Shown piece after piece: positions 21,001 to 24,000 of a stretch of 50,477 nucleotides of DNA (its first letter is position 1; every line of letters begins with the position of its first letter). Origin of the DNA: a virus (Duplodnaviria; Heunggongvirae; Uroviricota; Caudoviricetes); IMG/VR virus record IMGVR_UViG_2645727867_000002; one strand, 5' to 3'. The position numbers are program-made.

Positions 21001-24000
21001 GGGTGACGCTGTCAGGAGAAGGTAACGATATGCTGATGTCCTTCTTTCTGCAGACGGATACGACGAACCTGAACGCGATGCATCACAGGAAGCCGAATGC
21101 GAAGCTGGATACATTCGGGGTCTTTGATAACGGATGGCACACGCTGGCTTTTGAGTTTGCCGGAAACAACAGCATTCAGGTGACACCAGTACTGGATGAG
21201 AAACGGGGAGCGGCGTTCACACTGGTGAAGTCACCGGCATCGGGGGTGGCGGACAAACTGCAACTGACCGATATATCAAAATCGGCGACGTATACGCTGC
21301 TGATTGACAGCATTGCGGTGGAAGTGAACAGCACAGACACTGCGGCATGATAAAAAAAGCCGCCAGCGACAGGAATGGACGCTGGCGGTGCTAATACCCA
21401 TGGAAATACAAAAGCAAGATTCTTTCGTGCAGAGCCTTCTTTTTAATGAAAACACTTCCTGTTGTCAATAATAACGGTAAGAAATTAAAAAACGCCAGTT
21501 GCCGTAAGCGACTGGTGGGGGAGCGCCATGGACACTCCGAGAAATGGTGCAGTGAGTGTTTTTTAAATGAAAAATATTCTTATTATCAATATGTGTCAGC
21601 GGTATTTGCGGGGTAAAAAAATCCACCAGTAAGCACAGGGAGAAATGCGTCATGCTTCTGGTGGAAATGCAACTGCGGTGAGGTTTTATTGTTATATTGG
21701 TAAATTTTCTACACAAAAGCGATTCTTAATGTCAACACGTTTGACAGGGAATTGTTGGGCACTCAGAGTAACTACACGAGGCTGTCAGTGGAGCACTGGC
21801 GGCCTTTTTCATGTTGTGAGCTTCCGGATTGCGGGAGACGGGGTATGTACCAGATGGAAAAAATCACAACAGGTGTGTCATACACCACGTCAGCGGTGGG
21901 AACGGGCTACTGGTTCCTGCAGTTGCTGGACAAAGTCTCCCCGTCTCAGTGGGCGGCAATAGGCGTGCTGGGGAGTCTGCTGTTTGGGCTGCTGACATAT
22001 CTGACGAACCTGTATTTCAAAATTAAAGAAGACCGGCGTAAGGCGGCGCGGGGAGAGTAGACGATGAATAAACAATACGAACTGGTTGTTAAAGGGATAA
22101 ATATTTACCCGGATAAGATTACTGTTACTGTGGCGCTGGAAACTGGTGGGTATACGTCACTGTTGTTGCCAAATGTGGTGATTGATCTTGATCGTGTTGA
22201 AGGTGCCCCGCTGGAGTTTTACGAAGCTGAGGCGAAAAAGAAGGCGAAGCAGTTTTTCATGGATATTGCTGCCGGGTTATGTGAAGGGAACGAACCGTTG
22301 CCGGAAAAGCGCCTCTGTTCAGAAGAGCGGTATACCATACAAATTAACAATGCATATAACACGATACAGTCAGAAAAAGATGATATCGAATCACGCATTG
22401 AAAAACTGGAGAACAGCGTCGTTGAACTGAATAAAAAACTGTCGGTGCAGATCCCTTCCGAAGGTGAAAAAAAACGCCGTGATGAGCAGTTCGCGGCGTT
22501 TTACGATTATTGCCGGAAAGTGATGAGCAGAAATCTCGCAGAGTGTTTCCGTATTCAAAAAAACAGAGAGCGCTCTGCAAATAGTGAGATTCTGGATAAT
22601 TTTTTAAAGGGGACGCATCTCGCCAGTGATTGTTTCATTGCTCATTCTTTTGGTGGCTTTCATGAGGCCATCAAACATGATGTTGAGAGAAGTCCAGGTA
22701 TCCTCTGTTCCATTCCCGTAAGCATCGAAATAGACACAAATACGATAACCGGTGAACTCGTTACCGCCGGAGTCGGTATATTCCGTCATGAGGGGAACGA
22801 TGCCAAAGGTTCCTTTACAAAAATCGGGCCGTTCTTTCTGAAGGTAGAGCGATAGTTTGTTAAGTACCCATCCGACAGCTCGCTCATTTTGGTTTATTTT
22901 CGTATCGCGAAACAAAAATTCGAAGCGGCCAGATGACGCATGGGTGCAACCAAATACCGGGGCGTATTCATCAACCTTTGGTGTTCCTGAAAACATGCAG
23001 TCCGTGCTCTCGAATGCAGATGAATTGCTGTTGATCCACTTAACAAAAGAAAAAAGGTCTGAATCGCTTGTCTGTCTGAATATTCAACAAAATCCTCAAG
23101 GTGTGTCTCGATCAGTTCCGGGTGTTTACGAAAGTCATAATATTGACCGGGACGATATTTATGAGTGGTTGTTTTATCCCATGGTTGTGCTCTGCGTCCC
23201 TGTAAACGGAGGTCTGCCGCTGGATAGATAAGCATAAGTAATCTCCTGGTGGAATGTAATCCACGATCATCCGGGGAAATTAAGAACCCGCCAGTGCCCA
23301 CCACTGGTGGGGTGAAGGCTTAACATATCCAGGGATTCGGAACCGATAAATCCTGATAAATATCCATGAACACCAAAATCAAATACGGCCTGTCGGCTGC
23401 CGTTCTGGCGCTGATTGCCGCAGGGGCGCCTGCGCCTGATATTCTCGACCAGTTTCTGGATGAAAAAGAAGGTAACCACACCACGGCATACCGTGATGGT
23501 GCGGGTATCTGGACCATTTGTCGTGGTGCCACCAGGGTGGATGGCAAACCTGTCGTCCCGGGCATGAAGTTGTCGAAGAAAAAATGCGACCAGGTTAACG
23601 CCATTGAGCGTGATAAGGCGCTGGCATGGGTGGAGAAAAACATCCGGGTGCCACTGACTGAACCCCAGAAAGCGGGGATCGCGTCATTCTGCCCGTATAA
23701 CATTGGCCCCGGTAACTGTTTCCCGTCGACGTTTTATAAACGAATTAATGCAGGCGATCGCAGGGGAGCGTGTGAAGCGATTCGCTGGTGGATTAAGGAC
23801 GGTGGCAGAGACTGCCGTATCCGCTCAAACAACTGTTACGGCCAGATATCCCGTCGTGACCAGGAGAGCGCGCTGGCGTGCTGGGGAATCGACAGATAAG
23901 CAGAATATTTTGCTGAAAAATGACGTTGGCCAACGCGGACGGATAACACGAAATCCTGCGAACTGGCAAAGTGTAAGTGAATAACGTCAGGAACATTATT

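Follow-up and report, generated by a model that had tools for sequence, protein, structure and literature searches.

A probable three-layer mosaic between the pinholin and endolysin genes of a Stx2 prophage, with a truncated ydfR and a frameshifted antisense gene, Orf210

In phage 21 the holin and endolysin genes S21 and R21 abut and there is no ydfR. A different layout, S-ydfR-R, is found in the Qin prophage of Escherichia coli K-12 (essQ-ydfR-rrrQ, with the same 4-nucleotide (nt) offset as the locus described here) and in BP-4795, Stx2-86, PhiR12/PhiR5 and Stx2_95. No lysis role is documented for ydfR; the first 72 residues of K-12 YdfR are reported to bind the catalytic N-terminal half of RNase E, with RNA co-purifying (PMC13232886). 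The subject of this analysis is the corresponding interval in a 50,477-nt stretch of tailed-phage DNA, IMG/VR record IMGVR_UViG_2645727867_000002, referred to at its full length as the window: the S-R spacer, which separates the S stop codon (TAG, 22058-22060) from the R start codon (ATG, 23366). A previous inspection of these letters without database searches (the sequence-only reading) had placed a single cargo module in a gap of ~1.3 kb, between genes that are adjacent in phage 21-type cassettes. The gap is there, and measures 1305 nt; the adjacency holds for phage 21 itself and fails for K-12 Qin and for the Shiga toxin (Stx) phages examined, in which ydfR lies between. By gene order, ydfR counts as an accessory gene inserted long ago when phage 21 is the reference, yet it is standard in the Stx-type cassettes examined. 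The spacer as a whole is best explained as a three-layer mosaic rather than as a single cargo module, with a probability of about 0.8.

The first layer would be ydfR (DUF1327), an accessory late gene coupled to the pinholin gene and present in the window in a long form with a coiled-coil extension. The second would be a cassette of ~740 bp (~22550-23289), recombined into the 3' part of ydfR and carrying on the opposite strand a gene, here called Orf210, with its own Shine-Dalgarno sequence and a weak terminator; its insertion would have removed the native end of ydfR, the frame of which then reads ~100 codons through the 3' flank and the antisense of Orf210 to make a 263-amino acid (aa) open reading frame (ORF). 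The third would be a 1-nt deletion in a T7 run that inactivated Orf210 in the Stx2 phage lineage of the window. Comparison by blastn places the joints of this construction. S and ydfR are common to all variants up to 22311-22313 (PhiR12_1 is shared further, to 22513), similarity returns in all variants at 23289-23301 (breakpoints 23289, 23290 and 23301), and the interval ~22550-23289 is absent from the otherwise collinear cassettes of BP-4795, Stx2-86 and PhiR12_1. Alignment with Stx phages and phage 21, which the sequence-only reading had proposed as a check, thus finds ydfR usual in the Stx cassettes examined and the ~22550-23289 cassette variably present. The proposal of horizontally acquired cargo survives for this cassette, which relatives lack and whose gene recurs at other prophage sites; it does not survive for the 263-aa ORF, which is resident ydfR. 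Nor is late expression of the cargo supported, late transcription running against the antisense Orf210. The AT-richness that had also been noticed is borne out, but is modest: the GC content of the spacer is 42-48%, against 51-56% for S and R, and the corresponding values at third codon positions are 0.45-0.48 and 0.61-0.68.

The 263-aa plus-strand ORF (22064-22855) is coupled to S, as had been described, its ATG lying 4 nt past the S stop, with GGGGAGAG at 22050-22057. The further statement that it has no recognisable domain is wrong: residues 1-96 match PF07041 (DUF1327/YdfR) with 116.3 bits (gathering cut-off 25; expect value, E, 7.5e-34), and residues 1-168 correspond end to end to phrog_2091. 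The native long-form ydfR spans 22064-22549 on the plus strand, is translationally coupled to S, and consists of the N-domain (aa 1-83/96), a coiled-coil segment and a KKRRDEQFAAFYDYCRKVMSRNLAECF module. The protein is 38% identical to K-12 YdfR; it tracks the 329-aa form of Stx2_95 up to "...NLAECF" (aa 162, ~nt 22549) and is divergent beyond. The native C-terminus is not intact, since the sequence departs from all natural long forms after aa 162, and the Prokaryotic Genome Annotation Pipeline (PGAP) labels ydfR at this spacer a pseudogene, "missing C-terminus". Only ~162 codons of the frame are native. The read-through tail of ~100 non-native codons (22550-22855, plus strand) first crosses the 3' flank of Orf210 and then, on the register given by the coordinates, its antisense; from 22604 on, it complements the minus-strand gene exactly, codon by codon. 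The plus frame stays open for 84 codons because Orf210 has no TTA, CTA or TCA codon in that stretch; in Orf210 homologues the equivalent antisense frame is interrupted by stop codons at varied positions, and selection acts on the minus frame. The strand flip that had been seen near 22600 is real, with minus-strand coding ending at 22604 and native plus-strand coding at ~22550. The ydfR of the window is a truncated chimera retaining just the N-terminal domain, the one reported to bind RNase E in K-12 YdfR.

The forms of ydfR that were seen encode 103, 114, 161, 169, 211, 263, 268 and 329 aa and are assembled from common blocks. The DUF1327 N-domain is constant; at the C-terminus (22312-22549 in the window) the blocks are a short tail, a coiled coil, a KKRRDEQFAAFYDYC module and a C-domain of ~110 aa. 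The Stx2_499 variant lacks DUF1327 entirely (48 nt stand in place of window 22069-22422); what it retains is the S-coupled start codon, the coiled-coil end and an undamaged Orf210. The C-terminus of ydfR is in effect a zone of mosaic recombination, yielding proteins of 103 to 329 aa, and this bears on the recent report of the YdfR-RNase E interaction.

Orf210 in the window (22604-23235, minus strand) is a frameshifted copy of a 210-aa gene. Its ATG (23235-23233) lies 6 nt from the Shine-Dalgarno sequence AGGAGA (23242-23247, minus strand), and after 61 native codons the frame is lost and runs to a stop at 22894, the remainder of the gene being in the +1 frame; the reading frame is accordingly divided between 23304/23235-22894 and 22996-22604, and the predicted product has 61 native and 52 out-of-frame residues. 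The start, the AGGAGA and the split into two frames near an A6 run had all been located correctly from the sequence. The A6 run (23050-23055; T6 on the coding strand) is the site of a 1-nt deletion, intact alleles having A7: in O26:H11 strain 11368 and in an O157 genome (loci L007 and L008) the spacer is 1306 bp long and differs from that of the window only in having A7 in place of A6, which restores a single 210-aa ORF (2044-2676 in both loci). The locus is present in 133 of 5426 complete E. coli genomes, in 199 copies; 128 genomes have A7, 14 have the A6 of the window, and some hold one copy of each. Of the A6 carriers, six are 99.4-100% identical to the window along all 12 kb, and five more are ~98% identical along 70-83% of that length; that the carriers so placed share a similar Stx2 phage region fits one inherited mutation. 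In strain RM10042 another prophage has a second Orf210, an intact one, at its S-ydfR-R locus. A T7 run is confined to the E. coli allele; the corresponding run in homologues is T4-T6. Where the sequence-only reading left a choice between a pseudogene and a slippage-controlled gene, the comparison of alleles sustains the frameshift at the A run and the first alternative: Orf210 of the window is read as a lineage-specific pseudogene. A slippage-controlled gene sits poorly with 128 genomes against 14 and with a run that is not conserved. In databases the intact protein is a "hypothetical protein". In A6 genomes PGAP instead calls a 95-aa plus-strand "hypothetical protein" (window 22944-23231), antisense to the N-terminal half of Orf210; this call is probably spurious.

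A word-indexed search finds full-length relatives of Orf210 at 65, 64, 54 and 53% identity in Salmonella and metagenomes, and an exhaustive profile search extends the family to 251 representative clusters at E <=1e-3 (183 at 1e-10), nearly all of 195-220 aa, with members from Pseudomonas, Symbiopectobacterium, Myxococcota, Acidobacteriota, Verrucomicrobia and Leptospirales. Among six enterobacterial homologues the proportion of nonsynonymous differences (pN) is 0.19-0.34 and that of synonymous differences (pS) 0.66-0.86; the ratio of the corresponding rates (dN/dS) is 0.07-0.17 where dS is computable. On these substitution patterns, the family is real and under purifying selection. Residues R15, P18, E47, D48, D79, N115 and G174 are invariant in an alignment of 91 sequences, in which many further polar positions, including H17, E76, C80, R104 and R110, are at least 90% conserved; the conserved polar cluster (R15, E47, D48, D79, R104 and N115) points to a catalytic or ligand-binding site. 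The 24-kDa protein is acidic (isoelectric point 5.8) and has no hydrophobic segment, and its AlphaFold2 model has a mean predicted local distance difference test score of 90 and a predicted template-modelling score of 0.88; Orf210 is a soluble, cytoplasmic, single-domain alpha+beta protein. Neither Orf210 nor 110 members of the family match any Pfam, NCBIfam or PHROG model, the family profile matches no sequence in the PDB, and the longer members carry no informative fused domains. The family is uncharacterised, with a confidently predicted structure and no relative in the databases searched.

In Gammaproteobacteria, nearly every copy with a readable context belongs to a lambdoid prophage, where it is encoded antisense to the late genes. 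IMG/VR has 61 viral contigs with Orf210 relatives, and in 26 of the 35 analysable loci that are not of the E. coli type the gene stands antisense between tail genes J and I, followed by K and L; in two more it lies between I and K. (The tail genes were identified by Pfam: J by PF24801 and PF09327, I by PF06805, K by JAB and NlpC/P60, L by PF05100.) Relatives at the I-J site are 37-56% identical to Orf210. One Salmonella homologue is ~1.8 kb from sodC; another, in a P22-like Salmonella prophage, is just upstream of the holin gene and 3 kb from a Kiwa system. In this latter prophage Kiwa (KwaA and KwaB; locus L013, 9618-11257) sits between the Q antiterminator and the holin gene, several small ORFs separating it from the Orf210 homologue. 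Occupation of differing sites in different phages (I-J, I-K, beside sodC, upstream of the holin gene) is what is expected of a moron. Since I-J is the usual site, the ydfR-R junction of the E. coli phages is a secondary home. Comparison of the neighbours of 19 loci, all against all, and of the Pfam-annotated contigs of four distant members, reveals no conserved partner gene.

Two alternatives concern the way in which the overlapping frames and the A run are understood. One regards the 263-aa ORF as functional over its whole length and the minus-strand ORF as a by-product of an open antisense frame. The 263-aa ORF is annotated by GenBank submitters, is very common, and has a good Shine-Dalgarno sequence as well as its coupling to S; yet it is the minus frame that has full-length homologues (37-65% identity) at unrelated loci without ydfR and whose synonymous sites are saturated at a pN of 0.19-0.34, while the plus-frame tail contains stop codons in homologues, no natural long YdfR form follows the window protein beyond aa 162-169, and PGAP flags the truncation. 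This alternative is scarcely credible. The other takes the A run for a contingency or slippage switch and the window for its OFF phase, as might be suggested by the single homopolymer base that is the sole difference from the intact allele and by the genomes in which an A6 and an A7 copy occur together. The run is nevertheless just 6-7 nt long and is not conserved (T4-T6 in homologues); A7 copies occur in many other phage backgrounds, and the similar Stx2 region shared over 12 kb by the placed A6 carriers, six with full coverage and five at 70-83%, fits a single inherited event. A switch is very unlikely.

The remaining alternative joins the two genes into a defence gene and its antidote, after the model of Tab and anti-Tab in Pseudomonas phage JBD26: Orf210 would be a constitutive anti-phage protein, which the long, S-coupled ydfR would neutralise on entry into the lytic cycle. 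The architecture fits that precedent (PMC10884400): a minus-strand moron lies within the late operon, and its plus-strand neighbour is coupled to the late gene that comes before. One Salmonella homologue, too, does lie 3 kb from Kiwa in the Q-to-holin region. The two genes, however, part company too freely for this: ydfR is found without Orf210 in K-12 Qin, BP-4795, Stx2-86 and PhiR12, Orf210 without ydfR at the I-J, sodC and holin-upstream sites, and Stx2_499 combines an intact Orf210 with the loss of the DUF1327 domain. PADLOC, moreover, gives no match. A dedicated pair is improbable.

The preferred reading, a mosaic in which the two genes have separate histories, leaves the intact Orf210 to be accounted for in its own right. 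It is best read, from its position and distribution, as a lysogeny-expressed moron that is dead in the window. The intact gene would be transcribed from the prophage in lysogeny, against the late operon; after induction its expression would be countered by late transcription under Q antitermination; and the protein would act alone in the cytoplasm, through its apparent conserved polar site. As to the trait that it confers, exclusion of superinfecting phages is a tentative suggestion, to which the late-operon position, the nearness of Kiwa in one case and the resemblance to Tab of JBD26 lend weight. About as likely is an enzyme of host physiology or stress comparable to sodC, favoured because of the housekeeping-like chromosomal relatives of Orf210 and its absence from defence catalogues. 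It is a speculative step further to see in the family a new single-protein, lysogeny-expressed lambdoid function, most plausibly exclusion, with a fold that has no solved relative; it would have moved secondarily from I-J into the ydfR-R junction, which would then be a hotspot of cargo exchange.

Several observations weigh against the account given here. A consensus scan finds no sigma-70 consensus site upstream of Orf210, and its autonomous expression is only putative. The terminator-like hairpin (22556-22578, minus strand), located by consensus scan 26 nt past the Orf210 stop and composed of GCAGAG-CGCU-CUCUGU and then T7, is weak; at -8.2 kcal/mol it is not better than shuffled sequences (z -0.58) and is suggestive only. 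The intact 210-aa ORF is left uncalled by RefSeq's pipeline in most genomes inspected. No tie of the family to defence emerges: the chromosomal relatives in Acidobacteriota and Myxococcota adjoin glycosyltransferase, DUF1415, phosphatase or cytochrome genes, not defence islands, and PADLOC-DB 2.0 returns no hit for Orf210, its 110 relatives giving three isolated hits near E 0.008 from one member each. Finally, the 263-aa chimera is widespread, with 444 cluster members on ~1000 contigs, and its odd tail may conceivably be tolerated, or even serve a purpose.

If there is a promoter for the antisense cargo, it should lie in the pre-R spacer (23289-23365), the segment that blastn breakpoints and a side-by-side comparison of eight variants find common to all S-ydfR-R cassettes. 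What is left of the short-form ydfR 3' end (CCA CCA CTG GTG GGG TGA, encoding PPLVG-stop, 23298-23315) lies in this segment, together with a conserved stem-loop (GCCAGTG-CCCAC-CACTGGT, 23290-23308). A pre-R stretch of 37 nt resembles the region upstream of Orf210 in one of the tail-site loci, L016 (76% identity, E 0.002), a likeness that may reflect either an antisense promoter common to both or a scar of recombination. The idea that Orf210 takes a promoter with it from site to site was considered and rejected: the upstream regions of six homologues align poorly, the 37-nt match to L016 is the sole one, and nhmmer found nothing. Elsewhere, two unrelated antisense genes occupy the ydfR-R junction: Stx2-86 gp06 (104 aa; locus L004, 2588-2902, minus strand), with a relative at 77% in another Stx2 phage, and an 86-aa gene (locus L003, 2225-2485, minus strand) with a relative at 90% in phage 2H10. 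The latter is labelled DUF1823, its Pfam match being below threshold. All three genes start 35-55 nt from the common pre-R spacer, and the speculative view of the junction as a hotspot draws on the fact that at least three unrelated antisense genes (Orf210, Stx2-86 gp06 and the 86-aa gene) are found downstream of this same segment.

A role in lysis timing, which the sequence-only reading had entertained, finds no evidence for either gene, and Orf210 is inactive in the window; with one a truncated common accessory gene and the other a pseudogene, neither is likely to affect lysis timing or Stx release. The wider yield is of another kind. A conserved intact 210-aa gene in 128 complete E. coli genomes, many of them Shiga toxin-producing strains (O26, O145, O157, O103 and O111), constitutes an annotation gap; the family, given its fixed antisense position between I and J, is a reasonable candidate for screens of prophage benefit or defence, for which the A6 allele provides a ready-made natural null of Orf210. 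The literature search turned up nothing on the S-R spacer; the survey of Stx phages in PMC8136144 covers S, R and Rz/Rz1 only.

The genes that flank the spacer are those of a pinholin/SAR (signal-arrest-release) endolysin cassette. Holin S (21845-22060, plus strand; 71 aa, PF04971, E 2.9e-33) is of the phage 21 class II (pin)holin type and has an M1/M4 dual start (MYQM); the same dual start is annotated in phage 21 as S21-71/S21-68, and different RefSeq genomes give the 71-aa or the 68-aa form. Endolysin R (23366-23899, plus strand; 177 aa, PF00959, E 6.7e-25) is a SAR-type lysozyme, with the hydrophobic N-terminus LSAAVLALIAAGAPAP in translation. The window is Stx2 prophage DNA. Over positions 16000-28000, E. 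coli O104:H21 strains 94-3024 and CFSAN002236 match it at 100% identity; ORFs at 17281-18521 have the sizes of stx2A and stx2B, and 19332-21350 is occupied by a gene for a nanS-p-like esterase. Downstream of R, a gene for a P22_AR_N antirepressor-like protein (190 aa, 24174-24746) precedes a 178-aa ORF (24799-25335) that occupies the place of Rz in related phages and is putatively Rz, by position. With the antirepressor-like gene, the lysis cassette would have received two insertions; BP-4795 and Stx2-86 are arranged alike, the genes there being annotated R, ant, Rz.

Set beside described systems, the locus has its nearest counterparts in essQ-ydfR-rrrQ of K-12 Qin and S-ydfR-R of BP-4795, with which it shares the gene order, a ydfR start 4 nt past the stop of a class II holin gene, and the DUF1327 N-domain. 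In those two, ydfR encodes 103-114 aa and abuts R, whereas in the window it is lengthened by a coiled coil, lacks its native 3' end and has an antisense gene after it. The cassette of phage 21 (S21-R21-Rz/Rz1, OL657228) has the same family of pinholin, the dual-start motif and a SAR-type endolysin, but nothing between S and R. The likeness of Orf210 to the classical lambdoid morons (bor and lom of lambda; sodC between Salmonella tail genes) is that of a single extra gene between genes that are adjacent in relatives; such morons, too, are often on the opposite strand, differ in base composition and are thought to be expressed from the prophage. Orf210 differs from them in having no recognised promoter, in being cytoplasmic rather than located in the envelope, and, in the window, in being a pseudogene. 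With Tab/anti-Tab of JBD26 (PMC10884400), it has in common the setting of a minus-strand moron, within the late operon and next to a plus-strand late gene that is coupled to the gene upstream; no relation in sequence is expected (Tab has 83 aa), and, unlike that pair, Orf210 and ydfR are not obligate partners.

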